This document shows positions 9,382 through 59,573 of a stretch of DNA of 64,000 bases, in pieces. How positions within the stretch are numbered: position 1 is the stretch's first letter; every line of letters starts with the position of its first letter. A program made the position numbers and the translations under genes. The stretch is from an uncultured Marinobacterium sp. Its GTDB lineage: Bacteria > Pseudomonadota > Gammaproteobacteria > Pseudomonadales > Balneatricaceae. Where the stretch lies: NCBI GenBank assembly GCA_947501565.1, contig CANMWJ010000002.1, positions 348,016 to 412,015 of the forward strand, in the 5' to 3' direction. Under the pieces are notes generated by a model. The model worked only from the letters and a program-made list of their open reading frames with translations. It did no database searches and was not told the origin of the DNA.

Positions 9382-9398
9382 CACCACTCTTCCTGCTG

Positions 9399-11835: not shown

Positions 11836-11880
11836 AGGACTGGGGTACTCGGTGGAAAGCTAAAACACATATGAATCCAC

Positions 11881-15456: not shown

Positions 15457-15517
15457 TGTTTCTCTCCGTAAACGAAACACTTTCTTATTGTTGTTTTGCT
15501 TTCTCCGGGCAAAAAAA

Positions 15518-15546
15518 CGGCCCGGGGAGGAACCCTCCCCGTATGG
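15518..15546 (-). terminator. Possible partial terminator downstream of qhpB
   Basis: Minus-strand hairpin CGGGGAGG-GTTC-CTCCCCG followed after 4-5 nt by TTTTTTT. Confidence 0.35.
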
Positions 15547-16804: not shown

Positions 16805-16822
16805 CGCTTTGTCCTGTGCTGG

Positions 16823-17149: not shown

Positions 17150-17150
17150 A

Positions 17151-18644: not shown

Positions 18645-18697
18645 GGCAACCTCCTCGTCATACCTCGGTTAAACGTTGTCAGGTGCAATCGCTACGC

Positions 18698-20369: not shown

Positions 20370-20386
20370 AGCGAAGCCCGTGCCAA
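20370..20386 (-). promoter_or_regulatory. Putative sigma-54 promoter for qhpADCB (cluster 1)
   Basis: Minus-strand TGGCACGGGCTTCGCT has GG-N10-GC spacing. The -12 element is TCGC rather than TTGC. Lies 70-85 nt upstream of the qhpA start. Confidence 0.35.
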
Positions 20387-20714: not shown

Positions 20715-20730
20715 TGGCACAGCCCTTGCG
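20715..20730 (+). promoter_or_regulatory. Sigma-54 (RpoN) promoter of the aldehyde dehydrogenase gene
   Basis: TGGCAC-AGCCC-TTGCG is a consensus -24/-12 element. Located 45 nt upstream of ATG 20775. Confidence 0.6.
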
Positions 20731-24069: not shown

Positions 24070-25230
24070 TTGGAATTGGTTATGGGCACTACACCTCAAA
24101 CTATTTCTGCATCTGTGTGCGTGATCGCCAACGACGACACATGGATCGAATCCAGCGCGGTACAGCAGCTGGAAAAAACGTCCCAACTCAAGGGCATCAC
24201 CCATGCCGCCGGCATGCCAGATCTGCATCCGGGACGCGGTTATCCGATCGGCGCGGTCTTTCTCTCTGAGGGTTATGTCTACCCTGCCCTGGTCGGTAAC
24301 GATATCGGCTGTGGTATGTCGCTGTGGCAGACTGACTTGAAAAGCCGCAAGGTCCATCTCGACAAGCTGGAGAAACGCCTGATGGGCTTAGACGATCTGC
24401 TGGACGAGAGTTGGGCCGAGCTGATCGAACGTGAACAGCAGGCGCGCGATATTAATTCGACCGCCTTTGATCGTTCACTGGGCACCATCGGTGGTGGCAA
24501 TCATTTTGCCGAGCTGCAGCAACTTGACGAGATCTACGATGCTGACGCCGTGACAGCAGCAGGCCTGATAAAAGATAAGCTGGTGCTGCTGGTACACAGC
24601 GGTTCACGTGGCTTGGGTGAACGCATCCTGCGTTCTCATGTCGACCGGTTTTCCCATGCGGGTTTACCGACCGATACCGAAGCATTTGATCAGTATCTGG
24701 ATCGTCACAATCAGGCGTTACGCTTTGCTGAGTTGAACCGCGCGTTGATCGCCCGGCGTATGCTGGAAGCGCTTAAAGCAGATGGCAGCATGCTGCTGGA
24801 TATCAACCATAACCTGGTCGAGCAGATCGATCAGGCAGACTGCAGTGGCTGGATTCACCGCAAAGGCGCGACACCAGCCGACCGTGGTCTGGTGATGATC
24901 CCTGGCTCACGTGGCGATTACAGCTATCTGGTGCGCCCGAAACCCAGCGCAAGCAGTCTCTACTCGCTTGCTCACGGCGCAGGACGTAAATGGCAACGGA
25001 CTGAATGCAAAGGCCGTCTCGATAAGCGCTACCGCGTGAAGGATCTCGAACGCACCCGTTTCGGCAGCCGGGTAATCTGCAAAGATAAAGCGCTGATCTA
25101 CGAAGAGGCACCGGATGCGTACAAACATATCGACTCGGTTATTGCTGCGATGCTGGACGCCGATCTGATCGAGCCGGTCGCACGCTTTAAACCGGTACTC
25201 ACCTACAAAACTCAGGGAGGATGTTGCTGA
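24070..25230 (+). CDS. RtcB-family RNA ligase, release-factor-H-coupled type (RtcB2)
   Basis: RtcB motifs (MPDLHPGRGYPIGAV, NDIGCGM, HSGSRGLG, HGAGR). Immediately upstream of prfH. Start is TTG 24070 or ATG 24082. Confidence 0.75.
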   Translation: MELVMGTTPQTISASVCVIANDDTWIESSAVQQLEKTSQLKGITHAAGMPDLHPGRGYPIGAVFLSEGYVYPALVGNDIGCGMSLWQTDLKSRKVHLDKLEKRLMGLDDLLDESWAELIEREQQARDINSTAFDRSLGTIGGGNHFAELQQLDEIYDADAVTAAGLIKDKLVLLVHSGSRGLGERILRSHVDRFSHAGLPTDTEAFDQYLDRHNQALRFAELNRALIARRMLEALKADGSMLLDINHNLVEQIDQADCSGWIHRKGATPADRGLVMIPGSRGDYSYLVRPKPSASSLYSLAHGAGRKWQRTECKGRLDKRYRVKDLERTRFGSRVICKDKALIYEEAPDAYKHIDSVIAAMLDADLIEPVARFKPVLTYKTQGGCC

Positions 25231-25844
25231 TGCTTATTCAGATCACCGCCGCGCAAGGTCCGGATGAGTGCGCCCGGGCGGTTTACCTCGCGCTGCAGGC
25301 GTTTTGTGACGAAGCACAACGTGCTGGCCTCTCCATCTCCCTGCTTGAGCAGGAGGCCGGCGCTAAGTCAGGAACCTATCAGTCGGTATTAGTGGCGCTT
25401 GAAGGCGATGGTGCCGAGAGCTTCATTACCGACTGGCATGGCAGCATCCAGTGGACCTGCCCCAGCCCCTACCGTCCACGTCATAAACGCAAAAACTGGT
25501 TTATCGGCTTTAATCGGTTTGAGCGCCCCTCGATCGAATCTGATATGCAGATCCGTTACGAAAGCTGCCGGGCATCCGGCCCCGGTGGGCAACACGTCAA
25601 CAAAACCGATTCGGCGATCCGGGCGACGCATATAGCGTCTGGATTATCGGTTAAGGTGCAGTCCGAGCGTAGCCAGCACGCCAATAAACGGCTGGCGCAA
25701 CAGCTTATTGCGCTTAAATTGCAGCAGGCTGCGGAACAAAGCCAGGCTGACGCACGTACCCGACAGCGGGATCAACACCTCCAGCTGGAGCGCGGTAATC
25801 CGGTCCGGGTTTACAAAGGAGAAACCTTTGTACGCGTCAGGTAG
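25230..25844 (+). CDS. prfH: Peptide chain release factor H (PrfH)
   Basis: GGQ motif (GPGGQHVNKTDSAIR). N-terminus MLIQITAAQGP resembles E. coli PrfH. GGAGG SD; the start overlaps the rtcB2 stop. Confidence 0.75.
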   Translation: MLIQITAAQGPDECARAVYLALQAFCDEAQRAGLSISLLEQEAGAKSGTYQSVLVALEGDGAESFITDWHGSIQWTCPSPYRPRHKRKNWFIGFNRFERPSIESDMQIRYESCRASGPGGQHVNKTDSAIRATHIASGLSVKVQSERSQHANKRLAQQLIALKLQQAAEQSQADARTRQRDQHLQLERGNPVRVYKGETFVRVR

Positions 25845-29161: not shown

Positions 29162-30172
29162 TCACACCCAAACCCTATATACCTTCTCACCAACCCTTTC
29201 ACAGCAGATCGCCACGCCGGTGATCTGCTCAATCACCGCACGATTGGTTTCAAAATGTTGTGTCGGGGTTGTGGTTGTAAACTCCCCCTTCCCTGCCAGC
29301 AGCAACGGAATCAGTAGTTGATCCGCCAGATGTTCTTCGACCTGCGCGCCGAAGTTCAGAAAACGCTTCACGCAACCGACAGAACGTCGGGCGACCTTTT
29401 CCGCTGACAAACCGACCTTTCCTGTGGTTTCAAATACGCTTTTGTGGCTACCGTGGGGGATAAGCAACATAAAGGCATTTCCCGGCCCCGGTGTGCGCAC
29501 CATACGGACCTCTGCAAGTGCATCGTTCCAGCCAGTTCTGATTCTAGCTTCCGCCACTTCCCGCTCTGCGATGGAGCGATCCAGCCTGCTGACCAGTGCC
29601 TGCATATGACCGATGTCCGATGCTGGCTTGTTAACCGATAGCGGGTGTAAGGCTGCGGGCTGAATTTCCAGATGCCAGCAACCGCCACCCGCGGGATAGA
29701 ATCCCAAGCGTTCGGTTTCGAGTTTGTACTCAAGCCCAAACGCTGCCAGCAGCGGCAGAAAGGAGCTCTGAAGAAAGGTCAGTGAAGGCGACATCCCGTT
29801 ATGGGTGCCGCCTTCGAATGTAACCCGTGAAGGGGCCTGCGCACCCATCAGCAGTGGCAGCACGGTCTGGCAGACTAGCGTAGTGCTGCCCGCGCTGCCG
29901 ATGGCGAAGTGATAGTCCCCTGCCTGAATCGGACCGGGGTTGAACCGCAGTCGCAGGGAACCCAGCTCAAGCCCGTCCATTTGTGCGTTGGTAATCTGCT
30001 GTACCGCACGCGCAGCAGTCAGGTGCTGGCGCAACAGGCCTGGTTTGGGACGCCCGGCACGGATATTAATGATTTCTATATCGATGCCGTAGAGCGCCGC
30101 CAGCGTGAGCGAGGTGCGCAGCACCTGACCGCCGCCCTCGCCCTGCGCACCGTCGATGGTCAGAAACTCCAT
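29162..30172 (-). CDS. rtcA: RNA 3'-terminal phosphate cyclase RtcA
   Basis: MEFLTIDGAQGEGGGQVLRTSLTLAAL matches the RtcA N-terminus. AGGAAAGGAA SD. The track ORF is extended 13 codons further 5' to 30211. Confidence 0.85.
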   Translation of the reverse strand: MEFLTIDGAQGEGGGQVLRTSLTLAALYGIDIEIINIRAGRPKPGLLRQHLTAARAVQQITNAQMDGLELGSLRLRFNPGPIQAGDYHFAIGSAGSTTLVCQTVLPLLMGAQAPSRVTFEGGTHNGMSPSLTFLQSSFLPLLAAFGLEYKLETERLGFYPAGGGCWHLEIQPAALHPLSVNKPASDIGHMQALVSRLDRSIAEREVAEARIRTGWNDALAEVRMVRTPGPGNAFMLLIPHGSHKSVFETTGKVGLSAEKVARRSVGCVKRFLNFGAQVEEHLADQLLIPLLLAGKGEFTTTTPTQHFETNRAVIEQITGVAICCERVGEKVYRVWV

Positions 30173-30197
30173 AACTATTCCTTTCCTGTTCCGATCC

Positions 30198-31436
30198 CTA
30201 ACCTTTAACACAGACGATCTGCTTCAGCGTCTGTACCACTTCAACCAGGTCGCTCTGCGCGGCCATCACCTTATCGATATCCTTGTAGGCGTGCGGGATC
30301 TCGTCGATCACGCTTTCATCCTTACGGCACTCCACACCATCGGTGGCGGCGATCTGGTCGTCGATGCTGAACACCTTTTTCGCTTTGGTGCGGGACATCA
30401 CACGGCCTGCGCCGTGGCTGCAGCTGTTGAAACTCTCAGGATTACCTAACCCACGCACGATAAAGGAGCGCTCGCCCATACTGCCCGGAATGATTCCCAG
30501 CTCACCCTTCTCGGCTCGCACTGCGCCTTTACGGGTGACGTAGCAGTCCTTACCGTAGTGGTGCTCGCGCGAGATGTAGTTATGGTGGCAGTTCACCGCC
30601 ATCTGTGCGGCATCAAACGGGATACCCAACTCTTTACGTAGCGCTGCGATGGCGTTATGCATCATGATCTCGCGGTTTTTACGCGCGTAATCCTGCGCCC
30701 ACTCGACCGCTTCCACGTAATCGTCGAAGTACTTGGAGCCTTCTTTCAGGTACGCCAGATCCCTGTCCGGCAGCTGGACCTGATGGCGCTCCATCTCTTT
30801 CTTCGCCAGCTCGATAAAGTAAGTACCGATACGGTTACCGACACCACGGCTACCGGAGTGCAGCATGATCCAGACCGCATCGTGCTCATCCAGACAGAGT
30901 TCCAGAAAGTGGTTCCCGGTACCCATAGTGCCCAGATGCACCACATTGTTGGTCTGTCGGATCGCCGGATGTTTCTCGCAGATACGCTCGAAGCGTGCCT
31001 GCAGGCTCAGCCACTCCTGCGCCACCAGTTCGGGGATATCCTGCCACGCACCCTTATCGCGTTTATTGCCGCGACCGCTGGTACGGCCATGCGGGACGGC
31101 GCGCTCAAAGGCAGCGCGGATACCTGCCAGATTATCGGGTAGCTGATCGGCACGCAGACTGGTTTTGGTGGCGACCATACCGCACCCGATATCGACACCC
31201 ACAGCGGCGGGGATCACGGCCCCCACCGACGGGATCACGCTGCCGATGGTGGCGCCTTTACCCAGATGCACGTCGGGCATCACGGCGATATGACGGTGCA
31301 CCAGATCCAGTTGTGCGATGTTCTCCAGCTGCTGCTGGGCGTCGGGTTCAAAGGGCACGTCGTTGACCCAGGCTTTGATCGGCACACGTCCTTTCTCGCT
31401 GATCAGCGTATAGTTGCTTGTTCTGTGCTTACCCAT
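30198..31436 (-). CDS. rtcB: RNA-splicing ligase RtcB
   Basis: 412 aa with motifs HIAVMPDVHLGKGATIGSVIP, VGVDIGCGM and HSGSRGVGN. AAGGAAAG SD. Confidence 0.85.
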   Translation of the reverse strand: MGKHRTSNYTLISEKGRVPIKAWVNDVPFEPDAQQQLENIAQLDLVHRHIAVMPDVHLGKGATIGSVIPSVGAVIPAAVGVDIGCGMVATKTSLRADQLPDNLAGIRAAFERAVPHGRTSGRGNKRDKGAWQDIPELVAQEWLSLQARFERICEKHPAIRQTNNVVHLGTMGTGNHFLELCLDEHDAVWIMLHSGSRGVGNRIGTYFIELAKKEMERHQVQLPDRDLAYLKEGSKYFDDYVEAVEWAQDYARKNREIMMHNAIAALRKELGIPFDAAQMAVNCHHNYISREHHYGKDCYVTRKGAVRAEKGELGIIPGSMGERSFIVRGLGNPESFNSCSHGAGRVMSRTKAKKVFSIDDQIAATDGVECRKDESVIDEIPHAYKDIDKVMAAQSDLVEVVQTLKQIVCVKG

Positions 31437-31472
31437 GGTTCACTTTCCTTACATTCTTTAGGTCACGGTGGA

Positions 31473-32528
31473 TCAGGTGATTTTGACCACACCGTTCATC
31501 AGGCCCTCAAGACCGCCGTATACCGTCAGGCTATCGATCTTCTCGGCCATCTTCTCCAGCGCTTCCAGCTCTTTCAGCCGCATCAGCGTTGGGTTGTTTT
31601 CCATCACCTTGGCAGTGTTGTGCAGACTACGCGTCGCGGCGGTCTCTTCACGCCGCTTGATCACGTTGGCCTCAGCCGCTTTCTGCGCCTCTACCACCTG
31701 ATTGAGGATCGCTTTCATCTCGCCCGGCAGGATGATGTCTTTCACACCCACGCTGAGCAGATTCACGCCGACCGCACTTAGGGTGTTTTGTACCAGTTCG
31801 TGCACGGTCTCATTGATATAGAGTTTATCCAGCAGCAGGTCGTCCAATGTTTTGGTGCCGACCGCTTCACGTAACGCCAGCTGCAGGGTTTTATAGACAA
31901 ACTCCTCCACCCGATCGACCTGCCGTGCTGCCAGTTCCGGATCTTCGATACGGATCGCTGCGCTGAGGTTCAGGCGCAAGCTGACCCGGTCTTTGCTCAG
32001 GATCTCCTGGCCGCTGATCTCCAGCTGCTGCTGCCGGGTATCGAAACTCTTAAGTTCGACGTTGTGCGCGAACTGCCAGTAACCGTGCAGGCCCGCCTCC
32101 AGCTTACAGTGATAGACACCGTCCACGTAGAGCAAGCCTACGTGATCCTTGGCCACGTTAAACTCTGCGACCGGTTTGATCGCCACGGTACGTTCGCTAC
32201 GGATCAGGCGTGCCGCATGGTTGGCACCCGCACGCTGCAACTGAATTAGCAGCGCCGTATCCAGCGCCAATGAATCGTTCAGATCAACGATCTCCAGAGT
32301 GCATTTGGCCGCCTCTTTCCACAGCATCAGGGTTTCACCCGGCGCAACGACACCGCGTAACCGGCCGTTCTCGTAGAGCAAACCTGCCTGCGTCTGGGTC
32401 AGGTGCCAGTGTTGCAGATGGTCTGCCAGCAGCGGATAGCTGTGATACAAACGCTCGGCATTTTTCGGCGCAAAGAACAGCTCATCGATATCAAAGTCAG
32501 TAGGTCCAACCGGCCCGGCATACGCCAT
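31473..32528 (-). CDS. SPFH/band-7 (stomatin-prohibitin-like) domain protein, first gene of the rtcBA operon
   Basis: SPFH core (FDTRQQQLEISGQEILSKDRVSL...VKDIILPGEMKAIL...EAQKAAEANV) and a coiled-coil C-terminus. No SD precedes ATG 32528. Confidence 0.65.
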   Translation of the reverse strand: MAYAGPVGPTDFDIDELFFAPKNAERLYHSYPLLADHLQHWHLTQTQAGLLYENGRLRGVVAPGETLMLWKEAAKCTLEIVDLNDSLALDTALLIQLQRAGANHAARLIRSERTVAIKPVAEFNVAKDHVGLLYVDGVYHCKLEAGLHGYWQFAHNVELKSFDTRQQQLEISGQEILSKDRVSLRLNLSAAIRIEDPELAARQVDRVEEFVYKTLQLALREAVGTKTLDDLLLDKLYINETVHELVQNTLSAVGVNLLSVGVKDIILPGEMKAILNQVVEAQKAAEANVIKRREETAATRSLHNTAKVMENNPTLMRLKELEALEKMAEKIDSLTVYGGLEGLMNGVVKIT

Positions 32529-32817
32529 AGGTGATGGATACCCGGTGTTAATACCTGTACCAGTTTCTGGTCGCGGAACATCAGCACGCGCTGGTTCTCG
32601 GCAACTTTTATACGTTTTCTGATCATCGTTTTACATCCTTATAGGGTGTTGGTAAGGGTCGTAAACTTGGGTGCATCCTCTCCCCGTACATAGCGGGAGA
32701 CGGCATCAGCTACGGCCAGTGCCTGCGGAGCGGTTGTCTGCATCCTGCTGCAACCTTTCGTTCGGCGTGGCAGTGAGCCGCCAGCGGTCTGGACGGCTTA
32801 CCAACCTGTTGTTTTTC

Positions 32818-32889
32818 AGTTTCAAGATGGGATTTGAACCCATAACAAACGAATTAAGATTCGTCGCTCTCCCGTTGAGCTACTTGAGC
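32818..32889 (-). ncRNA. tRNA-like element A in the rtc operon leader (possible YrlA-type Y-RNA module or tRNA pseudogene)
   Basis: Canonical U8-A9, D-arm GCTC-AACGGGA-GAGC and T-arm ATGGG-TTCAAAT-CCCAT. Anticodon loop is only 6 nt and the acceptor stem has 2 terminal mismatches with no CCA. Confidence 0.4.
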
Positions 32890-32905
32890 CAGTTAACCTG
32901 GCGGG

Positions 32906-32975
32906 TGCTTGAGGTGGGATTTGAACCCACGTCCGACGGGTTTCCCCGCCTGCTCTACCCCTGAGCTACAGAAGC
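32906..32975 (-). ncRNA. tRNA-like element B in the rtc operon leader
   Basis: D-arm GCTC-AGGGGTA-GAGC and T-arm GTGGG-TTCAAAT-CCCAC. 6-nt anticodon loop (GGAAAC), imperfect acceptor stem. Confidence 0.4.
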
Positions 32976-33100
32976 GATACCTTGGTTAAAGGTAACGGCT
33001 GCCTTGATGGCAGATGTGTTTGGTATACGCAGTCGCATCGCTTAGCGCATCGGCGTGTCTCAGAAACACAACCTTCAAAACACGTAATAGGTATTACAAG

Positions 33101-33116
33101 GCGTGTGCCAACTTGA
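33101..33116 (-). promoter_or_regulatory. Candidate sigma-54 promoter for the tRNA-like/SPFH/rtcBA transcript
   Basis: Minus-strand TGGCAC-ACGCC-TTGT has a perfect -24 element and correct spacing. The -12 element is GT instead of GC. Confidence 0.3.
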
Positions 33117-33260
33117 GTGGTGCCTAATGAAATTCACATAACATATTGATATTCATGAAATAAATCTGTCCCATTTTGCCATGCTGATGTTTAAGGTTTG
33201 AAACCGCACGTTTAAGCGAATATCTTTCCAGATAGATTTATATCGGTATGGATACGCTTT

Positions 33261-34859
33261 ATGAAAAAGACAGTCGCAGTCAGCCTTATCGGAACCCAGC
33301 TGGATTTCGCGGGAAAACGGGGAGATCGCTGGGCGAAGTGGCGCCCCAATGTCAGCCTCTGTAGCCAGGATGATCTGGTGATCGATGAGCTGCACCTGCT
33401 GCACGACAACCACCGCGAGCGACTGGCCCATCAAGTGATGGGCGATATCAACGCGGTATCGCCGGAAACTCAGGTTGAGCTGCACGCCAATAACTTTGTT
33501 GATCCCTGGGACTTCGAGGAAGTGTATTCCAAACTCTTTGACTGGTGCCAGGCACAGGATTTTGACCCGGACCAGAACGACTATCTGTTCCATATCACCA
33601 CAGGCACCCACGTCGCCCAGATCTGCATCTACCTGCTGACGGAGAGTCGTCACTTTCCCGGTCGTCTGATCCAGACCTCCCCGGATAAACACACGGAGAA
33701 ACATGTCGGGCGCGCACAGATCATCGATCTGGACCTCTCGCGCTACGATCAGCTGGCAACCCGTTTCGACAGGGAGCACCAGCTGGGTAGCGCTTTCCTG
33801 AAAGGCGGTATCGAAACCCGCAACAGCCAGTTCAACGCAATGATCGCCCAGATCGAAAAGGTGGCGATCCGCTCTCGCGAACCGATCCTGCTAACCGGCC
33901 CTACCGGGGCGGGTAAATCTCAGTTGGCAACACGCATCTTCCAGCTGAAAAAGCAGCGCGCGATGATCAGCGGCGATCTGGTGCCGGTAAACTGCGCCAC
34001 CCTCAAAGGTGAAAACGCCATGGCGGCCCTCTTCGGTCACACCAAAGGCGCTTTTACCGGGGCGCTGCAGGCACGCGACGGTTTCCTGAAGTCCGCTCAT
34101 CAGGGTGTGCTGTTTCTGGATGAAATTGGCGAATTGGGAGTTGAGGAGCAAGCGATGCTGTTGCACGCGCTGGAGAACAAAAGTTTCTACCCGGTGGGCA
34201 GCGATAAGGCGGTATCCAGCGATTTTCAGCTGATCGCCGGTACCAACCGCGATCTGAAGCAGGAGGTGCTGGAAGGACGTTTCCGACAGGATCTGCTCTC
34301 ACGTGTCAATCTCTGGAGTTATGAGCTGCCGGGCCTCAAAGACCGCCGAGAGGATATCGCGCCCAATATCAACTACGAGCTGATCGAATACGCCAAGCGT
34401 GAAGGCACCCACGCGGAATTCAACAAGGAAGCACGGGAGCACTTCCTGCGTTTTGCACAATCCGACAACGCGCTCTGGCAAGGTAACTTCCGCGACCTCA
34501 ACGCCGCGATCACCCGCATGTCGACGCTAGCGGATTCGTCACGCATTACGGTCGAGGATGTGGAAGCAGAGATCGAACGACTGACTAACTCATGGCAGAT
34601 CGACACCCAGCAGCACAGCGTTGAGGACTGCATCGTGCGCTACCTCTCTCCTGCAGAGATAAGCCAGCTCGACCGTTTCGATCGCAGCCAGCTCAACTAC
34701 GTGTTGGGTGTGTGCGAATCCCACAACTCGCTGGCCGCCGCCGGTCGTGAACTGTTCCAGGCCTCCAGACTGGAGAAGAAACAGACCAACGACTCCACCC
34801 GCTTACAGAAGTATCTGGCGAAGTTTGGTATTTCCAGCACTCAAATTGAAAGAAGATAA
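33261..34859 (+). CDS. rtcR: Sigma-54-dependent regulator RtcR (CARF-like N-domain + AAA+ + HTH)
   Basis: 532 aa. N-terminus MKKTVAVSLIGTQLDF is typical of RtcR. Contains GPTGAGKS and GAFTGA. Divergent from rtcBA. Confidence 0.85.
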   Translation: MKKTVAVSLIGTQLDFAGKRGDRWAKWRPNVSLCSQDDLVIDELHLLHDNHRERLAHQVMGDINAVSPETQVELHANNFVDPWDFEEVYSKLFDWCQAQDFDPDQNDYLFHITTGTHVAQICIYLLTESRHFPGRLIQTSPDKHTEKHVGRAQIIDLDLSRYDQLATRFDREHQLGSAFLKGGIETRNSQFNAMIAQIEKVAIRSREPILLTGPTGAGKSQLATRIFQLKKQRAMISGDLVPVNCATLKGENAMAALFGHTKGAFTGALQARDGFLKSAHQGVLFLDEIGELGVEEQAMLLHALENKSFYPVGSDKAVSSDFQLIAGTNRDLKQEVLEGRFRQDLLSRVNLWSYELPGLKDRREDIAPNINYELIEYAKREGTHAEFNKEAREHFLRFAQSDNALWQGNFRDLNAAITRMSTLADSSRITVEDVEAEIERLTNSWQIDTQQHSVEDCIVRYLSPAEISQLDRFDRSQLNYVLGVCESHNSLAAAGRELFQASRLEKKQTNDSTRLQKYLAKFGISSTQIERR

Positions 34860-37122: not shown

Positions 37123-37152
37123 AAAAAAAGGCCACCCGAGGGTGGCCTTAAA
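37123..37152 (-). terminator. Intrinsic terminator downstream of qhpB (cluster 2)
   Basis: Minus-strand GGCCACCC-TC-GGGTGGCC followed by TTTTTTT. Confidence 0.7.
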
Positions 37153-37182: not shown

Positions 37183-38343
37183 TCATTTCAGGCGTGCAAG
37201 ACGCAGATCGGAGGTGGACATATCACCGGTCAGCTGGATGCTGCCGATCTTCTCCAGCGTCGCTGCATCGTGTACAGAGATATCACTGGATGTACCACCG
37301 ATGTAGATGGTCTTGCCGTCACCGGTCATGTTGATGTTGTAGTAGGTGTGGTCCATCGCCTGCACACCCATGGTCTCACCGGTTTTCAGGTTGTGCTTGG
37401 AGAGCTGGTTAAATGAACCGTACAGCACATCTTTATCGTTCGGGTCGGTTACCCAGTTAAAGACGATAAACTCAAACGGTACGGTTTCGAAGCTCTCCAC
37501 CTTGCCGGTTTCGGTATCGATACGAACGTGGCCCCAGAGGAAGTCAGCCTGAGATTCGTCGCCCGGCGCACCGTTCCAGCGAATGGTGAAGTACGGCATG
37601 ATGAACTCGCCCACGTGCTCACCCATGGTATGCATCGCAAACGCATCAGGTGGAACCCACTTGTCCGGTGCACGATCCCAGTTCTGCAGCGCTTTGATCA
37701 TTCGCATCTCACCGGTTTTTGGATTGATCGCTTTCAGATCGCCGCCGCCCAGAATCACTTCACCGTTCTGCATGGAACCGATCTTGGTGATTCGACGGTC
37801 AACCGGGAAGCTACGTACCGGCTTGGCGTTCAGGCCGTCATCGGTGTTGAACACCGCCAGACGTGGCGCCATAGTTTCGAAACGGTCGGACAGCTTACGT
37901 ACCGGGTTCTGTACGGTGTACAGCTCTTTACCGTCAGCGCTGACCGCCATGGAGATAAAGCTCTTCACGGTTACGTTGTCGTAGGACTGCTTGGCGGAGA
38001 ACTTGATCTCACAGTTGGTGATATCGAAGCCGTATACGTCTTCCCACTTGTTGGTCATCACGTATGCGATGCGACCGTCCGGAGACATTGCGATACCGCC
38101 GTTGCCGAAGATACCCGGTACGTCACAGGTACGTACCAGCTGGTTGGTTTCGGTATCAACGATGTGCAGCTGGTTCGGACGGGTTACGGTCAGGATGTAC
38201 TCGTGACCACCCGCCTTCATGCCATTGATGGTGTCCGGCGTCTGGGCAACTTCGGTATTTACGGTGCTACAGCCCGCGAGCAACGCGGAAGCACCGATCG
38301 CGCCGGCCAATGCCGCACGCTTGAACATATTCGTCAGTTTCAT
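37183..38343 (-). CDS. qhpB: Quinohemoprotein amine dehydrogenase beta subunit, paralog 2 (possible lipoprotein)
   Basis: Collinear with 15647..16804. N-terminus ...ASALLAGCSTV contains a lipobox-like L-A-G-C. GGAGG SD. Confidence 0.8.
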   Translation of the reverse strand: MKLTNMFKRAALAGAIGASALLAGCSTVNTEVAQTPDTINGMKAGGHEYILTVTRPNQLHIVDTETNQLVRTCDVPGIFGNGGIAMSPDGRIAYVMTNKWEDVYGFDITNCEIKFSAKQSYDNVTVKSFISMAVSADGKELYTVQNPVRKLSDRFETMAPRLAVFNTDDGLNAKPVRSFPVDRRITKIGSMQNGEVILGGGDLKAINPKTGEMRMIKALQNWDRAPDKWVPPDAFAMHTMGEHVGEFIMPYFTIRWNGAPGDESQADFLWGHVRIDTETGKVESFETVPFEFIVFNWVTDPNDKDVLYGSFNQLSKHNLKTGETMGVQAMDHTYYNINMTGDGKTIYIGGTSSDISVHDAATLEKIGSIQLTGDMSTSDLRLARLK

Positions 38344-38358
38344 CGGATTAAGCCTCCA

Positions 38359-38679
38359 TCACTCTTCCGGGAAGACGCTGTCGATCTTGCGCCAGTCTTC
38401 GTTGGCCTTAGCCACATCTTGTGACCAGTTCGGGTGACTGCTCATGGTGTCTGGCACCTGAGCGGGCCACCAACAAGCGTCGGCGCAACCGTAAAGGTCG
38501 GATTCCATCGGCTGGCAGAGAGAGCCCAGGCCACCGAACGGGTCTACTTCCCAGCCCGGATCGTTTACGGAGGTACAGCCCACGATGGACTGCATCGCTA
38601 CAACCTCTTCCACCTCGTTCTGGGAGGTCGCCTGGTCGAGCATTTTGGCTTTTTTATTGAACGACTTAAGGTGTTTCAT
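38359..38679 (-). CDS. qhpC: QHNDH gamma subunit precursor, paralog 2
   Basis: Leader [10 protein letters not shown]...EEVVAM, then QSIVGC...E...LCQPMESD...[14 protein letters not shown] with Cys/Glu/Asp/Trp spacing identical to copy 1. AAGGAG SD. Confidence 0.85.
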
Positions 38680-40117
38680 TTAAGAACTCCTTCTAGGAGA
38701 TACGTAAGCATCGAAGAACGCCGGGTTCTCGAGCATGATCCGCGAGTACGCCTCTACGCCGAAGTCCACCCAGTCTCTGAGCAGATCGCAGTAGTGGTAC
38801 GAAGGTCTCGCGGCATCGCCGTACTTCGCATAACTTTCGTGGTAACAACCACCAGAACAGATGTTGCGGATGCGGCAGGTTTCGCAGCCCGTGTTGCTGC
38901 GATCAAGACGCTGTTCGACAAACTCGCCGAGACTGGTCTTGTCGATCCCCTGGTCGACATCACCAAAGGTAGGCAGGTCCGATCCGGTGAAGCGGTGGCA
39001 AAGGTTGATACCGCCTTTGGTATCCACCGCCAGCAGGCCGACACCGGCACCACAAGGCAGCTGTTTCTTGTTGCCTTCGTGCAGGTCGGTCATCAGCTGG
39101 TGCATGTTGCCGTAACCAAAGTTACGGTTGTCCAGCGCCGCTTCGAGGTACTTTTTACCAAGGCGTTTCATGCCTGCGAACACCTCTATCATCTCCTCGG
39201 ACGTGAGGTTGAAGGAAGTGATGTCGCCGGAGGTCACGGGGCCAAAGCCCACCTCGGCAAAACCCAGACCGCTTAGGTGCTCAAAGATCGCTTCCACGTC
39301 GGTGATGCCGCGTGTCAGTGTCACACGACAACCCACTGGGCGCGCCGTATAGCGCGACAGCAGCATGTCGACCTTCTGTTTCACCACATCGTAGGTTCCC
39401 TGACCGCCCACGGTAATCCGGTTTTTATCGTGCATCGCCTTGGGGCCATCCATGGAGATGGTCAGGCCGAAGCGATGTTCGTTAAACCAGTCCACCAACT
39501 CTTCATTAAGCATGGTGGCGTTGGTGGTCATGGTGAAGCTGACCTCTGATTCCAGCGCGGCAAAACGCTCTTCACAATAGGCCACCACTTTGCGGATCAG
39601 CGGCATATTGGTCAGCGGTTCACCGCCAAAGAAAACCACGTTGTACTGACGCTGGTCGGGGGACTCCTCAAGCAGCATCTCGATCGACTTCACCGCCGTT
39701 TCGTAGGACATCTTGTTGCCCGCCGACGGTGTAGTCAGGTCCTCTTTGTAGCAGTAGGTGCAACTGAGGTTGCAGCCGGTATTGGTGTTGAGCACGATCG
39801 TCGTCAGCGGAAAGTTTTTCACTTTCTGCGGTTCGTGATTGATCTGCACTGCACCACCGTCGGAAACGATACGCAGAGACTTCAGCTCCTCAATCGTATC
39901 CATCACGTCTTCCGGCTGATAACGGCCATCGAAACGCTCACGAACCATCTGCGCAGTCACCCTTTCCTGCTCTGCAAACAGATCGATCAGATCACGGCTC
40001 AGACCGTCCAGCTCAAACAGACTGCTGGTCGGCACGTGGAACATCATCTTGCGCGTGTCCACATCCACCAGATGCATGTTTGGCTTCACCAGGGATAAAG
40101 AACCCATATCTACCTCA
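38680..40117 (-). CDS. qhpD: Radical SAM/SPASM maturase QhpD, paralog 2
   Basis: CNLSCTYC and a SPASM C-terminus. ATG 40117 (MGSLSLVKPNMHLV) has an AAGGGTGAGG SD; the track GTG is at 40140. Confidence 0.8.
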
Positions 40118-40169
40118 CCCTTATTGTTATTTCGCGTCACGCGAATCTGTCTGGAGGTTTATCCGCCGA

Positions 40170-41771
40170 TTACTCGATAATCGGTGTAACAAATTTCTGT
40201 ACGGTTACCAGCAGGTGCGCTTCACCCTGAACACTGCTGTCACCGTCCTGTACGGTGCCGACTACGGTCAGGTTGCCCACGTTGTTGGTCGACATCTTAC
40301 GTTCCGGGTTCAGACCCGCATCACCCGGCGTGAAGATACCGTCACGGTCGATGGTGCCTGCGTATTTGATGTCGTTGTCGTGCTTTGCAATCTCATCAAA
40401 CGGCTTGAGGGACCAGGCCGCTGGCATATACCCCAGACGCAGATCGTCATCAGTACCCGGCTTACCGTCAGCACCGGCGGTGTAACCCACGGCACGATAA
40501 GCAGATTTCTGTTTCGGAATCGGACCACCGGCACCACCGATACGGGCGATGGACTCAGATGGCGTGATCTCGACACGATCCAGTTTGTCGTATACCGCCA
40601 GTGCAGCGTTCGCACTAACGCGCCCCACTTTCACATCCTTAGCGCCAACACGGGCGTTAGAGGACGCTTCAACCAACAGCTGAATGCGGCTGCTGTCGCG
40701 AGACACAACACTGATCAGCTTGAGGCCACTGCCGAGCTTCACGTTACCCTTGAGGTTATTGCCGGATACGGTGATTACCTTGCGCTCACCCTGTTTGATG
40801 TAGGACGGCGTTACAGCAGCGATTGCGTTGCCTTTAACCGCCTTCACGCTGCCACCGATGATCTCGTCATCGCGTTCGAACATACGCCCTTCCAGCGCCA
40901 TGCCATCAGCAGAAGCCGCCAGCACCTGACGCACTTTTACGCCGTCGATGGTCAGGCTTGCACGCCACTCGTAGCCCGCATATACCACCGCTCGGCCTTC
41001 GCCCGTCAGCGGCGTACCGTCTGCGTAAGTACCTTCAACCGCCACAGCATAGTCATCGGCAGATTGTTTGGTTACACGCAGGGTCGCATCGAAGTTGCCT
41101 TTACCTGGCAGATAGCCGGTCATTGCCCAGCTGCCGTCCAGATCTTTCTTGGCGGCGCTCTTCCAGCTGTTCCAGGCATCGCTGTTGAATGGGTAGTCTT
41201 TCGCCAGCTTCGGCGCAACGTTAGTCAGTGCGATATCAAACCATGCGCGGTCACGGGCACCGGCGTGCAGTTCAGCCGTTGGGATCTGACCCATGTGGAA
41301 GTGAACCAGGTGTTTCCACTCGTCTTCGGTACGGCGCTGCAACGCGATACGGGCACCGGAGTGACAACGTACGCAGGTCTCCTGCAGCAACTGATCGAAT
41401 GACTCCACCACGTTTGGTTTTTTCTCCAGCAGATAACGCAGACCATCGGTTTCGGACGGTGCCAAACCTTGCGTATCGGACAGATATTTAACCAGCGTGC
41501 GTTTCTCGTCCGGTGAGATCACCAGGCCGCGCTGCTGTTGCATGCGGCTGATCGTCATCATCCAGCCTTCTGGGGTTTTGCGCTGCTCACTGATGCGCGA
41601 AAACGGCGTCGCCGATTCACCGGTCTCCGTATGACACGCCAAACAGCGATCGCGAATGATGCGTTCCGCATCCGCATCCGCAGCCTGAGCAGGTGCTGCC
41701 GCCAAACCCATCAGGGCCAGTGCACCGGTTCCCAGAAGTGCGCGCGTTGTCTTGTTATTATTCAAGGCCAT
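40170..41771 (-). CDS. qhpA: QHNDH alpha subunit (dihaem), paralog 2
   Basis: CLACH and CVRCH motifs. Signal peptide MALNNNKTTRALLGTGALALMGLAAAPAQA. AAGGAG SD. Confidence 0.85.
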   Translation of the reverse strand: MALNNNKTTRALLGTGALALMGLAAAPAQAADADAERIIRDRCLACHTETGESATPFSRISEQRKTPEGWMMTISRMQQQRGLVISPDEKRTLVKYLSDTQGLAPSETDGLRYLLEKKPNVVESFDQLLQETCVRCHSGARIALQRRTEDEWKHLVHFHMGQIPTAELHAGARDRAWFDIALTNVAPKLAKDYPFNSDAWNSWKSAAKKDLDGSWAMTGYLPGKGNFDATLRVTKQSADDYAVAVEGTYADGTPLTGEGRAVVYAGYEWRASLTIDGVKVRQVLAASADGMALEGRMFERDDEIIGGSVKAVKGNAIAAVTPSYIKQGERKVITVSGNNLKGNVKLGSGLKLISVVSRDSSRIQLLVEASSNARVGAKDVKVGRVSANAALAVYDKLDRVEITPSESIARIGGAGGPIPKQKSAYRAVGYTAGADGKPGTDDDLRLGYMPAAWSLKPFDEIAKHDNDIKYAGTIDRDGIFTPGDAGLNPERKMSTNNVGNLTVVGTVQDGDSSVQGEAHLLVTVQKFVTPIIE

Positions 41772-41960
41772 CACTCCTTAAGTTTTATTTTTCTGACGAC
41801 TTGTCTCTTCAGACTTCTGCAGGTCTGGTCGATCAAAAACCGTCGATCCGCATCCCTGTAATCCGGTATCAACCCGTCCAGCCGGGCCCGATACATTCAT
41901 AAGGGTGCGTTATCTAAGTTACGCGGGTGGTGTAAATAAAATGCCGCGCTTTTGTTAGAA

Positions 41961-41990
41961 GATGTAGGTAGATGTATCGAGATGTATCGA
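41961..41990. promoter_or_regulatory. Three tandem 10-bp direct repeats GATGTAGGTA GATGTATCGA GATGTATCGA in the qhpA2 / response-regulator divergent intergenic region
   Basis: Exact 10-bp phasing, as used by OmpR/TorR-family winged-helix regulators. Similar arrays occur at 11881..11943 and 56626..56665. Confidence 0.45.
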
Positions 41991-42139: not shown

Positions 42140-42871
42140 ATGGCTTCAGACACTTCAGCCCCAGCACACATTCTGATTGTGGAAGATGATTTCGCCTCGC
42201 GCTCGCTTTTGGTGAGTTACTTCGAGAAAGAGGGCTATAGAATTACCGAGACGGAACAAGCCGACGACCTGGTAATTCTGGTGGAAGAGCAGAAAGTCGA
42301 CCTGGTCCTGCTGGATATCAATCTACCGGGAAAGGATGGGCTCACCCTCACCCGGGAACTGCGTGCTACCTCCCGCGTAGGTATCATTCTGGTCACCAGT
42401 AAAGGTGATGAGATCGACCGTATCGTTGGCCTTGAGCTGGGCGCCGACGATTACGTGACCAAACCGTTCAATCCGCGTGAACTGCTGGTGCGTGCTAAGA
42501 ATCTGCTCTGGCGCGTGCGCAGTCAGGATAAAGATCCTCGCGAAAACGCCCGTCAGATCGCAATCTGGAACTTCGAGGGCTGGTCTTTGGATGGCAGCAA
42601 ACGACTGCTCACCTCTCCCGATCAGACTAGCGAACGTCTGCCCGAGGGGGAGTTCAAGCTGCTACACGCGTTGATCAGCCACCCCGGACAGGTGCTCTCC
42701 CGCGACCAGCTGATGGACGCAATCCATGACCGTGAATGGACCCCCAACGACCGTTCGGTGGATGTACTCGTCGGTCGCCTGCGCCGCAAACTACGCGACA
42801 ACCCGGCCGATCCCCATTTTATTCTCACCGCCCACGGTGCAGGCTACATGTTTGCCGGCGAGCTGGAGTAA
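42140..42871 (+). CDS. OmpR/PhoB-family response regulator (TorR/ArcA-like)
   Basis: REC domain (ILIVEDD...DLVLLDINLPGKDG) plus a winged-helix Trans_reg_C domain (LRRKLRDNPADPHFILTAHGAGYMF). Confidence 0.85.
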   Translation: MASDTSAPAHILIVEDDFASRSLLVSYFEKEGYRITETEQADDLVILVEEQKVDLVLLDINLPGKDGLTLTRELRATSRVGIILVTSKGDEIDRIVGLELGADDYVTKPFNPRELLVRAKNLLWRVRSQDKDPRENARQIAIWNFEGWSLDGSKRLLTSPDQTSERLPEGEFKLLHALISHPGQVLSRDQLMDAIHDREWTPNDRSVDVLVGRLRRKLRDNPADPHFILTAHGAGYMFAGELE

Positions 42872-53697: not shown

Positions 53698-55110
53698 TTA
53701 CTTGTTGATGTTCAGAGTCTGAGGCACGGTGTATTCCAGCAGGCCTTCCTGACCGAATTCGACACCGAAACCAGACATCTTGCAGCCACCGAATGGCGCG
53801 TGTGGCAGTACTTCAGCGTGACCGTTAACCCACGCAGTACCACATTCCAGACGCAGAGCCACTTTCTGTGCTTCAGCGGTGTCAGCGGACCATACAGAGC
53901 CACCCAGGCCAACTTCGCAAGCGTTTGCACGTGCGACCGCTTCATCGACATCGCTGTAACGGATTACCGGCAGTGCAGGACCAAACTGCTCTTCAGCAAC
54001 GATTCGCATCTCGTCGGTTACGTTCGCTACGATGGTTGGTGGGTAGAAGTAACCCTTGCCTTCCAGCGGCTCGCCGCCACAGAGTACGTCTGCACCCTGT
54101 TCACGCGCATCGTCAACCAGTGCTTTCACAAGTTCAAACTGATCTTTGTTCTGGATCGGACCAAAGGTCACGCCCTCTTCCAGGCCATTGCCAACATTCT
54201 GGGCATTAGCAATCGCCACCAGTTTTTCACACAGCGCGTCGTACTGGCTGTCGTGTACGTACAGACGTTTCAGTGCTGCACAGGTCTGGCCCATGTTCAG
54301 GAATGCGGTCTGGAAGATGCCTTCTGCGATCGCGTCCAGATCAGAATCTGGCAGGATGATACCGGCGTCGTTACCGCCCAGCTCCAGCGTCAGACGTTTC
54401 AGGTTGCTTGCAGCGCTGCGCATGATGGTTTGACCGGTCGGTGTGGAACCGGTGAAGACGATCTTGCGGATCTTGTCGTGGCTGGTCATGCCGCTACCGA
54501 TGCCGCTCTCACCGGTTACGATGTTCATTACACCCGCTGGCACCTCTTCGTTGATGATCTCAGCTAGCAACAGGGTGTTAAACGGCGTCATACCGGATGG
54601 TTTGGATACCACGGTGTTGCCAGTACGCAGGGCTGGCATGATGTGCCATACCGCAATCATCAGGGGCCAGTTCCACGGTGTGATGGAACCTACCACGCCC
54701 AATGGCTTGCGGTGTAGCTCAATACGTTTGTTTTCGCTGTCTTCCAGTACTTCAACCGGAATTTCCAGGTCCGCTGTGTAGCGGGTCCAGGCAACGGCAC
54801 CGCCTACTTCCGCCTGTGCCAGGAACATCGGTTTACCCTGCTCCTGAACGATTACAGACGCCAGTTCTTCAGCGTTAGCTTCGATGCGATCAGCAATACG
54901 GTGCAGTGTTGCTTTCAGTTCGTCATCGCTGGTGTGCTGCCAGGATTTAAATGCTTCCTCTGCGGCGTCAATGGCGCTGTTCAGCTGATCTACAGACGCG
55001 TACGGACACGCCGCAACAACCTCTTCGGTTGCCGGGTTGATCACGTCAAACGTGCCTCGGCCGCCTGCAACTTTCTCACCGTTGATAATCAGATTGTATT
55101 CTCTTTGCAT
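53698..55110 (-). CDS. NAD-dependent aldehyde dehydrogenase (aminobutyraldehyde/betaine-aldehyde DH-like)
   Basis: ALDH Glu (ELGGND) and Cys (GQTCAALKR) motifs. ATG start. Confidence 0.8.
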   Translation of the reverse strand: MQREYNLIINGEKVAGGRGTFDVINPATEEVVAACPYASVDQLNSAIDAAEEAFKSWQHTSDDELKATLHRIADRIEANAEELASVIVQEQGKPMFLAQAEVGGAVAWTRYTADLEIPVEVLEDSENKRIELHRKPLGVVGSITPWNWPLMIAVWHIMPALRTGNTVVSKPSGMTPFNTLLLAEIINEEVPAGVMNIVTGESGIGSGMTSHDKIRKIVFTGSTPTGQTIMRSAASNLKRLTLELGGNDAGIILPDSDLDAIAEGIFQTAFLNMGQTCAALKRLYVHDSQYDALCEKLVAIANAQNVGNGLEEGVTFGPIQNKDQFELVKALVDDAREQGADVLCGGEPLEGKGYFYPPTIVANVTDEMRIVAEEQFGPALPVIRYSDVDEAVARANACEVGLGGSVWSADTAEAQKVALRLECGTAWVNGHAEVLPHAPFGGCKMSGFGVEFGQEGLLEYTVPQTLNINK

Positions 55111-55193
55111 GGAGGTTGGTCCTTATCGATTGTTATAGCTATTAAAGCCGGGCCTCCTGCAAGACCCGGCTGGATTCGTGACCGTTACTTAAC

Positions 55194-56489: not shown

Positions 56490-56625
56490 CGTGTTCGTCC
56501 TCCGCAATAGCGTATTTTTATTTGTTGTTATGCTGAATCGGTGCGCTATACAGGAAGGGGAGCTGCTAACCGCATCAATTCATGACGTAAAGGTTACGTG
56601 GTGGCTGTAAACAGGATTTGCGGGC

Positions 56626-56665
56626 GATGTAGAGAGTTGTGCGTAGATGTAACGAGATGTAGCAC
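56626..56665. promoter_or_regulatory. 10-bp phased GATGTA direct repeats upstream of the porin-ALDH operon
   Basis: GATGTAGAGA GTTGTGCGTA GATGTAACGA GATGTAGCAC. Confidence 0.4.
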
Positions 56666-57640: not shown

Positions 57641-57642
57641 GG

Positions 57643-59316: not shown

Positions 59317-59573
59317 GGCAAATACCCCTTGGTTACAGATACAAATATAGAACCGCACCAGAAGAAATGCTCAGTATTTGTACAGCAGTAATTACACATA
59401 CCAGGGAAATATATTCATGAAACTAACAGATCTAACTGCAATGTAACGCATGTTTAATAGCAGTGTATTGCATCGTTTTCACATCCCGCTTTCTATCTGA
59501 CAACTACAATTAACGTAACCATTAGCTGTGTACTTATTAATCAATCGTCCACCTTTTACAACAGGCGACAGCT

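Follow-up and report, generated by a model that had tools for sequence, protein, structure and literature searches.

In this study, a window of 64 kb (the whole stretch of DNA that was analysed) from contig CANMWJ010000002.1 of an uncultured Marinobacterium sp. was investigated with respect to a second set of genes for a periplasmic quinohemoprotein amine dehydrogenase (QHNDH), qhpA2-D2-C2-B2 (cluster 2; Table 1), which lies in the same window as a first set, qhpA1-D1-C1-B1 (cluster 1). Taken as a whole, our data are best explained, and we regard this explanation as likely, by a second functional QHNDH of a separate type (type 2, cluster 1 being type 1), which would be matured in trans by the one set of genes qhpF, qhpE and qhpG (F-E-G) common to both enzymes and would belong to a regulon of three units. 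The evidence is computational throughout and was drawn from the gene content, from phylogeny and synteny, from the positions of motifs and from purifying selection.

With reference to the gene content, a preliminary description of this DNA had claimed a second copy of the alpha, maturase, gamma and beta genes collinear with cluster 1, and this was borne out by four minus-strand open reading frames (ORFs) that score above the family cut-offs: alpha against TIGR03908 (650 bits, cut-off 274), QhpD against TIGR03906 (743 bits, cut-off 453), gamma against NF037958 (166 bits, cut-off 50) and beta against TIGR03907 (311 bits, cut-off 223), all four models being NCBIfam equivalogs. The qhpA2 gene is preceded by the Shine-Dalgarno sequence AAGGA and its translation contains two c-type haem CXXCH motifs (CLACH and CVRCH), while QhpD2, encoded between qhpA2 and qhpC2, displays CNLSCTYC, a CX3CX2C motif. 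In gamma-2, Cys7, Glu16, Cys27, Asp33, Cys37, Cys41, Trp43 and Asp49 have exactly the spacing seen in the characterised enzymes; all three Cys-to-Asp/Glu cross-link pairs are present, plus Cys37 and Trp43 for the cysteine tryptophylquinone (CTQ) cofactor (residue roles as given in PMC7876137). Cluster 2 is in this respect like the QHNDH of Pseudomonas putida (PDB 1JMX and 1JMZ), with the same three subunits plus QhpD and a gamma whose cross-link and CTQ residues are likewise the same.

Comparatively, cluster 2 is 49% identical to cluster 1 in alpha, 62% in QhpD, 60% in gamma and 34% in beta, and the paralogs are, as far as their sequences tell, old. The gamma core had been described as identical in both, which holds apart from one position, Ala versus Pro, in (A/P)CWWPAQVPD. 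The divergence claimed for the leader and for beta stands for beta, but was overstated for the leader, in which 17 of 28 residues are identical and the stretch VEEVVA|MQS at the predicted QhpE cleavage site is unchanged. Beta-1 is of the classical Pseudomonas type, being 58-64% identical to Pseudomonas proteins, and it scores 481 bits against the P. putida structure 1JMX_B versus 242 bits for beta-2; the latter is 89-91% identical to the betas of Pontibacterium granulatum and of a Pontibacterium metagenome-assembled genome. By our analysis, the DNA comes from a species of Pontibacterium. The lipobox-like LLAGC pointed out earlier in beta-2 is a canonical lipobox (MKLTNMFKRAALAGAIGASALLAGC|S, that is LLAGC|S, matching [LVI][ASTVI][GAS]C) with Cys25 and Ser at +2, and a basic n-region and a hydrophobic h-region stand ahead of L-A-G-C25, so that beta-2 is probably lipid-anchored. 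A lipobox was detected in 35 of the 82 type-2 betas, including all of those from Pontibacterium, Oceanospirillum, Amphritea, Sedimenticola and Thauera, versus none of the 13 type-1 betas, which suggests that in the lineages bearing it the type-2 enzyme is anchored to the membrane.

Phylogenetically, a comparison of the two paralogs had been proposed as a check, and the neighbour-joining trees of alpha, beta and QhpD split type 1 from type 2 with 98-100% bootstrap, the support for the type-2 clade itself being 99-100%. The type-2 clade was observed in about ten genera, comprising Pontibacterium, Oceanospirillum, Neptunomonas, Amphritea and Neptuniibacter, and further Marinobacterium, Nitrincola, Motiliproteus, Sedimenticola and several Rhodocyclaceae including Thauera. 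From species-representative genomes, 80 type-2 loci were mapped by tblastn and 10 kb on either side of the cluster was inspected. The dominant layout has a giant kinase and a regulator gene divergent from qhpA-D-C-B, which is followed in some cases by a porin gene and then by qhpF-E-G, and these three genes are carried by the type-2 loci of most genera. Because they are, the type-2 enzyme normally travels with F-E-G, to which Pontibacterium is one exception; and since F-E-G stands directly downstream of the type-2 clusters in most other genera, the type-2 enzyme can be taken to need it. Within 10 kb, no F-E-G was found in any of the four Pontibacterium loci (L006-L009), in those of Thauera (L081-L085) or in two Rhodocyclales genomes.

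In the window, as had been stated before, no leader protease, exporter or flavin monooxygenase stands beside cluster 2, whose operon ends in a strong terminator after qhpB2. A tblastn search of the 64 kb found qhpE, qhpF and qhpG once each, at 8053-11835, behind cluster 1 and 25 kb from cluster 2, and remnants of F-E-G were detected neither after qhpB2 nor at any other place in the window. On its predicted gene content, cluster 2 is an incomplete qhp locus dependent on genes elsewhere. The lack of F-E-G where most relatives carry them would suit a type-2 locus that was complete in the past and is now silent or decaying, non-functional after the loss of its maturation genes, and silence had indeed been raised in the preliminary description. 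We consider this very unlikely, since the four ORFs are full length and above the family cut-offs, all catalytic and cross-link residues are present, and the ratio of nonsynonymous to synonymous divergence (dN/dS) against P. granulatum and Pontibacterium sinense is 0.07-0.09 for A2, 0.04-0.05 for D2, 0.02-0.22 for C2 and 0.05-0.07 for B2, with synonymous divergence near saturation and similar values for cluster 1. These low ratios (0.02-0.22) indicate that the state lacking F-E-G is kept under selection; at least four Pontibacterium lineages show it, and they have also retained the regulator, the kinase and an undamaged promoter block. By its sequence, cluster 2 is most likely a functional second isoenzyme, trans-matured by the common F-E-G set.

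The relation between the A-D-C-B sets and F-E-G was found to vary in other genomes as well. Complete type-1 loci with the order of cluster 1 in the window, namely an aldehyde dehydrogenase gene divergent from A-D-C-B-porin-sigma-54 activator-F-E-G, occur in Marinobacter (L090) and Neptunomonas qingdaonensis (L092), and in the Pseudomonas aeruginosa-type locus activator-F-E-G adjoins A-D-C-B. In Marinobacterium stanieri, the type-1 locus (L086) is without F-E-G within 10 kb and the type-2 locus (L046) carries it; the same was observed between Neptuniibacter halophilus (type-1 L087) and congeneric type-2 loci (L026 and L028), and in Oceanospirillum beijerinckii (type-1 L088, type-2 L014). Amphritea and Marinobacterium nitratireducens (L074) have two A-D-C-B sets beside a single F-E-G set in one super-locus, and the window agrees with the super-locus of M. 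nitratireducens in gene order and strands, apart from an insert of about 15 kb between qhpB2 and the cluster-1 aldehyde dehydrogenase gene that holds RNA-repair genes, an extracytoplasmic function (ECF) sigma factor and others. QhpD was lost in no locus and was always duplicated together with A, C and B; its constant pairing with each gamma may be simply the A-D-C-B gene order, and both QhpD copies are nevertheless kept under constraint. Outside these groups, a type-1 qhpADCB set on a Pseudomonas chromosome (CP138377; L091, 6571-11134) has no F-E-G within 10 kb and a Cytochrom_C_asm (cytochrome c assembly) gene directly upstream; because of it, clusters without F-E-G are not confined to Oceanospirillales.

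The maturation genes had been described as those of cluster 1. They are sited behind it, but in evolutionary terms they represent a single lineage, which adjoins one cluster type or the other depending on the genus. In trees of QhpF and QhpG from 34 sampled loci (neighbour-joining, 200 bootstrap replicates), both proteins track taxonomy and not the type of the adjoining cluster; the synteny of qhpF with qhpE and qhpG holds in all loci. The type-1-linked copies were monophyletic in 0 of 200 replicates, the F and G of the window are sister to type-2-linked copies of Oceanospirillum (133 and 155 of 200, respectively), and the type-1-linked F-E-G of N. qingdaonensis is nested among type-2-linked Neptunomonas copies in 199-200 of 200, with 85, 77 and 75% identity to Neptunomonas concharum. 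Two deep clades would be expected if each cluster type had formerly possessed an F-E-G set of its own, but the trees do not have them, and in every lineage sampled there is, on these sequences, one F-E-G lineage, common to both enzyme types and variable in position. Pairwise identities alone had suggested that the porin and F-E-G of the window were cluster 2's own genes, relocated (57-72% identity to type-2-linked Oceanospirillum copies versus 36-40% to a Halomonas-group locus). That idea was replaced, given that the type-1 loci of Marinobacter and Neptunomonas share the same order (ADCB-P-S54R-FEG) and that the F and G trees follow taxonomy. It was also observed that QhpG and QhpE evolve far faster than the structural genes (window 8053-10112 against L093 and L095), QhpG being 66-69% identical between Pontibacterium species versus 86-91% for beta-1 and beta-2, with dN of 0.27 for G and E versus 0.03-0.13 for A, D, C and B.

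The gamma subunit itself carries the features on which the maturation enzymes act. In the biogenesis of QhpC, the 28-residue leader is needed for QhpD binding, thioethers form, QhpG, in a complex with QhpC and QhpD, docks on the loop Asp39-Met51 of the cross-linked QhpC and hydroxylates Trp43, the leader is cut off by QhpE, and QhpF serves as exporter of the product (PMC7876137). In Paracoccus denitrificans, all eight genes (qhpABCDEFGR) form one amine-induced qhp set, and the single turnover of QhpD, QhpE and QhpG has been explained by their being encoded together with QhpC (Nakai, Oozeki, Okajima and co-workers; PMC7876137). All sequence elements for the same biogenesis logic are present in gamma-2. 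The window differs from Paracoccus in that QhpD is duplicated with each QhpC, that E, F and G are single and distant from cluster 2, and that its betas are remote, at 143-170 bits to 1JJU_B. When 13 type-1 and 74 type-2 unique gamma sequences were compared, both types were found to keep the N-terminal part of the leader, the cleavage motif E.VVA|M, every residue involved in the cross-links or in CTQ and, except at positions 40 and 50, the Asp39-Met51 docking loop. Type-fixed differences are few: leader position 9, mature positions 5, 19, 23, 24, 40 and 50, and the C-terminal tail. The link of such features to QhpE and QhpG is taken from PMC7876137 or drawn by us (predicted cleavage site, Asp39-Met51 loop).

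Gamma-2 might instead be matured without QhpE, QhpF and QhpG, through another peptidase and exporter or with no CTQ at all, as a different maturation had also been mentioned before, and the unusually divergent, predicted lipidated beta suggests a different assembly site. We give this very little credence, because the leader of 28 residues, the cleavage-site residues, Cys37, Trp43 and the QhpG-docking loop are kept in type-2 gammas, because F-E-G is in the same operon in the type-2 loci of most genera, and because neither a Sec nor a Tat signal was found in the gamma-2 sequence.

Regarding regulation, a GATGTA repeat array between qhpA2 and a divergent OmpR-type regulator gene with a giant kinase had been taken to suggest a different regulation of cluster 2. 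The array is real and is part of a conserved block of four decamers, and the regulator-kinase pair accompanies the type-2 cluster in about 70 of 80 loci. In the window, the decamers (Table 1) are followed by TTTACAC-N7-GTAACTTAG, and at 41960-41986 there are three decamers of perfect period on the qhpA2 strand (TACATCT-N3-TACATCT). The block consensus reads TTACATTCTG TTACATCTGA GTACAACTTA GCACAAAtg, then TTCATTTACAC, seven bases and GTAAnTTAG, and the cross-genus decamer consensus is TGTTACATCT. Two profiles were used, one built from 72 other type-2 loci with the window left out, and one trained on 73 sequences including the window's own qhpA2 promoter and searched with nhmmer against the window only. 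The first matched 72 of 73 type-2 loci outside the window and, in all fetched loci, gave 78 matches before type-2 qhpA, 15 before porin genes and a single one before qhpF, that being in the window only. The qhpA2 block was found with E 1e-8 by the window-free profile and E 2e-11 by the window-trained one, and no matches were found in the window besides the sites upstream of qhpA2, qhpF and a porin gene (P2). P2 forms with aldehyde dehydrogenase 2 an operon (53698-56489) 12 kb from cluster 2, beyond the kinase gene, a partner behind the same promoter type that the preliminary description had missed. The best NCBIfam match of this dehydrogenase is the aminobutyraldehyde dehydrogenase subfamily, below the cut-off. 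An inverted copy of the decamer core, CGATACAT, was observed at 41889-41896, about 65 nt away from the direct array in the direction of qhpA2.

The absence of an obvious sigma-54 promoter at cluster 2 was upheld. In the window, sigma-54 matches precede qhpA1 (20371-20385) and the cluster-1 aldehyde dehydrogenase gene (20715-20729), and none was found near cluster 2; in the comparison of loci, sigma-54-like sites precede type-1 qhpA in 15 of 23 cases and the aldehyde dehydrogenase gene next to it in 19 of 20, and no genuine site was found before any of 82 type-2 qhpA or 77 qhpF genes. It is thereby confirmed that cluster 2 of the window is regulated differently from cluster 1, and this generalises to type-2 loci. 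Cluster 1 is of the Pseudomonas type, whose locus comprises a sigma-54 activator gene, qhpFEG, an aldehyde dehydrogenase gene and qhpADCB, and shares with it the sigma-54 promoters, the type of activator and the phenylacetaldehyde-dehydrogenase-like neighbour, the score of the latter being below the equivalog cut-off. Cluster 2, in contrast, represents a sister clade without a sigma-54 promoter, with another regulator, a beta lipobox and no adjoining E, F and G.

The regulator scores 274.6 bits against the TorR model NF008034 (cut-off 275) and 253.7 bits against the ArcA model (cut-off 334). The kinase consists of Ser/Thr-kinase-like, AAA_16, TPR, GAF, PAS, HisKA, HATPase, REC and Hpt domains. 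Its C-terminal 520 residues best match TorS (TIGR02956) at 472.7 bits, below the cut-off of 676.5 and in the transmitter half only, and the N-terminal 1600 residues are a cytoplasmic assembly of Pkinase (Ser/Thr-kinase-like), AAA_16, TPR, GAF and PAS domains, so this is not TorS/TorR in the strict sense. The likeness to the system of Escherichia coli and Salmonella lies in the TorR-like regulator, the HisKA-HATPase-REC-Hpt module and the promoter architecture. TorR binds four direct decamers, the tor box being CTGTTCATAT (PMC9239176), and type-2 promoters carry four direct decamers at 10-bp spacing that share CTGTT with it, but TGTTACATCT and CTGTTCATAT agree in register at 5 of 10 positions. 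The window system further differs in having no periplasmic TorS sensor domain and no TorT, and its regulon concerns amine oxidation and not the respiration of trimethylamine N-oxide (TMAO).

Type-2 blocks were also noticed at other genes in further genomes. In Thauera (L083, 15962-16020; also L081 and L085), the block precedes a DUF1329/DUF1302 outer-membrane pair and not an Alginate_exp-like porin; an uptake component of the outer membrane, though not of one kind, seems to be a constant part of the type-2 regulon. In M. stanieri (L086, 13887-13955), it precedes a porin-aldehyde dehydrogenase pair beside the type-1 cluster lacking F-E-G, and since it adjoins a type-1 cluster, the two systems of this species are cross-wired too. 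In the Amphritea super-loci (L018, L019, L029, L030 and L032), type-1 qhpA is preceded, at a distance of about 200 nt, by a paired box TTACATTTTTGAACAG and has a sigma-54-like site as well, and the type-1 cluster there may be under dual control.

Within the window, the sites before qhpF consist of two arrays, GTTACAACCT GTTACATCTT CATACAAAGT and, after 14 nt, TGTTACATCC GGTTACAGTG, oriented as at the other two sites. In the search of the window alone they were matched at 11914-11940 (E 0.004) and 11881-11897 (E 0.5). The boxes are kept in the Pontibacterium-group loci L093, L094 and L095 while the flanks diverge, and among 77 loci, paired TTACA-type boxes before qhpF were detected in the Pontibacterium group only, against a background of 0.01 per 260 nt; the 125-nt gap holds two arrays versus about 0.005 paired matches expected. 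No terminator was predicted between the sigma-54 activator gene and qhpF, and a sigma-70 consensus scan before qhpF gave nothing usable, its sole match overlapping the start codon. The qhpF start codon has no recognisable Shine-Dalgarno sequence in the window (11836-11877) and likewise in L093-L095 (...gagtaccccagtcctATG). The reciprocal wiring, a sigma-54 promoter before qhpF where F-E-G is in the type-2 operon, was sought and found in none of 77 loci.

The processing of gamma-2 in trans by QhpE, QhpF and QhpG, which the preliminary description had put forward, is best supported because F-E-G is usual in type-2 loci and the Pontibacterium loci without it are nonetheless under purifying selection, because the gamma features linked to QhpE and QhpG are kept in both types, and because the type-2 box array is also found upstream of qhpF. 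From these observations we infer regulator binding, co-induction, trans-maturation, lipidation and substrate. In the proposed scheme, QhpD2 would bind the leader of QhpC2 and install the three thioether bridges, after which the single QhpG would hydroxylate Trp43 of gamma-2, the single QhpE would remove the leader at VVA|MQS and the single QhpF would export the product. Cluster 1 would be sigma-54 dependent, and cluster 2 would be turned on by the TorR-like regulator, fed by the giant cytoplasmic TorS-like hybrid kinase. By binding the direct decamer arrays that precede qhpA2D2C2B2, P2 with aldehyde dehydrogenase 2, and qhpFEG, the regulator would drive all three units, so that more of the single-turnover maturation enzymes would be supplied whenever cluster 2 is induced. 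In addition, qhpFEG may receive transcription from the sigma-54 activator gene upstream.

Several points weigh against this explanation. QhpE and QhpG are single-turnover enzymes, which the authors link to co-expression with QhpC in one operon (PMC7876137), and the use of one set by two operons would make matching the enzyme amounts harder. Dual-input control is not a general rule, as 0 of 77 qhpF genes have a sigma-54 promoter. The match upstream of qhpF is weak taken alone (12.8 bits; E 0.004 in the window and 0.12 in a search of 1.9 Mb), it spans the decamer part of the profile only, and neither a recognisable Shine-Dalgarno sequence nor a -10 element was found after the boxes. Moreover, the single-copy count of qhpE, qhpF and qhpG covers the 64-kb window and not the rest of the genome, and although one Pontibacterium-named QhpG was present among the 120 best database matches, most of those entries are nameless.

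The weak and partial match bears on the possibility that the sharing of F-E-G is real but the decamers before qhpF are not functional, so that the sole expression of qhpFEG would be together with, or by way of, the sigma-54 activator gene; the activator gene is followed after 10-60 nt by qhpF in Marinobacter and Pseudomonas, where the two are probably co-transcribed. We regard this as unlikely, though deserving serious attention, for the boxes are kept in four diverged sequences whose flanking bases have changed, the two arrays exceed chance expectation, their orientation agrees with the other two sites, and paired TTACA-type boxes are restricted to the lineage in which F-E-G was lost from the type-2 cluster. 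The limited extent of the DNA (64 kb, the contig being at least 418 kb long) bears on another possibility, that cluster 2 has dedicated qhpE, qhpF and qhpG elsewhere in the chromosome and needs no sharing; the regulon has evidently been scattered by rearrangement, its porin-aldehyde dehydrogenase operon lying past the kinase gene. This we hold to be improbable, in view of the single F and G lineage that tracks taxonomy with no second deep clade among the 34 sampled loci, of the at least four other lineages that have two A-D-C-B sets with F-E-G beside one only (within the 10-kb flanks), of the one QhpG named Pontibacterium among the 120 best matches, and of the type-2 boxes that precede the known qhpF. 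Sharing of the one F-E-G set within a three-unit regulon is the explanation that we retain.

Table 1. Features of the 64-kb window (positions in the window)
Feature	Position	Strand	Remarks
qhpG, flavin-dependent tryptophan dihydroxylase	8053-9405	minus	NF049967 548 bits, cut-off 240; probable ATG at 9381
qhpE, subtilisin-like leader peptidase	9399-10112	minus	NF049966 289 bits, cut-off 165
qhpF, ABC exporter of processed gamma subunit, presumably common to both enzymes	10105-11835	minus	ABC exporter families; synteny with qhpE and qhpG
Two decamer arrays before qhpF	11878-11940	minus	within the 125 nt that separate qhpF from the sigma-54 activator gene; pattern search
Sigma-54 activator gene	11961-13898	minus	upstream of qhpFEG, same strand
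Cluster-1 porin P1	14128-15480	minus	matches Pfam Alginate_exp; upstream of qhpFEG, same strand
Terminator after qhpB1	15523-15541
Cluster 1, qhpA1-D1-C1-B1, Pseudomonas putida type	15647-20299	minus	collinear with cluster 2
Intrinsic terminator ending the qhpA2D2C2B2 operon	37128-37149	minus	9-bp stem with 6 G-C pairs, then TTTTTAT
qhpB2, beta-propeller subunit, predicted lipoprotein	37183-38343	minus
qhpC2, gamma precursor	38359-38679	minus	28-residue leader and 78-residue mature part
qhpD2, radical-SAM/SPASM enzyme, forms gamma-subunit thioether cross-links	38680-40140	minus
qhpA2, dihaem alpha subunit of second QHNDH	40170-41774	minus	ATG start at 41771
Type-2 promoter block before qhpA2	41918-41986	minus	four direct decamers: cGATACATCT, cGATACATCT, acCTACATCT, tcTAACAAAA
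OmpR-family response regulator, TorR-like	42140-42871	plus	divergent from qhpA2
Cytoplasmic hybrid kinase, 2140 residues	42878-49300	plus	Pfam domains and synteny
Aldehyde dehydrogenase 2	53698-55110	minus	83 nt downstream of P2; Pfam Aldedh 512 bits
Porin-like outer-membrane protein P2	55194-56489	minus	43% identical to cluster-1 porin (14128-15480)
Second promoter block, before the P2-aldehyde dehydrogenase operon	56595-56661	minus	E 3e-8 in window-only search; E 1e-6 with window-free profile

Among the other genes of the window, two RNA-repair modules lie between the qhp clusters (24070-25844 and 29162-34859). The first consists of RtcB paired with an RF-1-domain (PrfH-like) protein, and the second of an SPFH-RtcB-RtcA operon divergent from an RtcR sigma-54 activator gene, with a sigma-54-like site TGGCACACGCCTTGT at 33096-33110 in this region. 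Upstream of the P2 promoter (56741-60965) are genes for a T2SS-B-domain protein and an AAA_22/peptidoglycan-binding (ExeA-like) protein, followed by a divergent gene for a VpsR-domain sigma-54 activator.

As to the function of the second enzyme, cluster 2 probably has a different amine substrate. Two differently induced QHNDHs, for phenylethylamine and benzylamine, were reportedly found in Aromatoleum aromaticum EbN1 by Schmitt et al. in 2019. Thauera, in which we observed type-2 loci without F-E-G (L081-L085), is related to Aromatoleum. The titles and abstracts of papers naming the enzyme gave no indication of a description of a shared F-E-G set, of the type-2 clade, of its promoter element or of the regulator-kinase pair.

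In a wider sense, a marine Oceanospirillales group and some Rhodocyclales may run two anciently diverged amine dehydrogenases on one single-use maturation set, a picture which, with all its parts, we consider possible and somewhat short of probable. According to it, QhpD would have co-diverged with each gamma and alpha-beta set, while QhpE, QhpF and QhpG stayed generalists; where F-E-G became separated from the type-2 enzyme through rearrangement, as in Pontibacterium, F-E-G would carry sites of the type-2 regulator, and the supply of these suicide enzymes would follow what either of the two dehydrogenases requires. A lipid anchor would mark the type-2 enzyme, and its control would lie with a cytoplasmic sensor not described before, in which Ser/Thr-kinase-like, AAA and GAF parts are joined to a phosphorelay of the TorS type.

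The once-per-molecule action of QhpD, QhpE and QhpG has been rationalised by their coding in the same operon as QhpC (PMC7876137), and a naturally recurring arrangement of two A-D-C-B sets with one F-E-G set bears on that reasoning. QhpE, QhpF and QhpG are probably able to act on gamma paralogs of no more than 60% identity, while QhpD stays paired with its own gamma. The comparison of the gamma types points to the residues that each enzyme may read, since the cleavage site and the Asp39-Met51 loop are kept and the few type-fixed differences fall mostly outside them. This study also defines a large type-2 clade of QHNDH, many of whose members probably have a lipoprotein as beta, together with a promoter element that is conserved and an unusual sensor kinase as a candidate regulator of an amine catabolic pathway in marine bacteria. 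The system may be an example of how the supply of stoichiometric maturation factors is matched to two independently induced enzymes.

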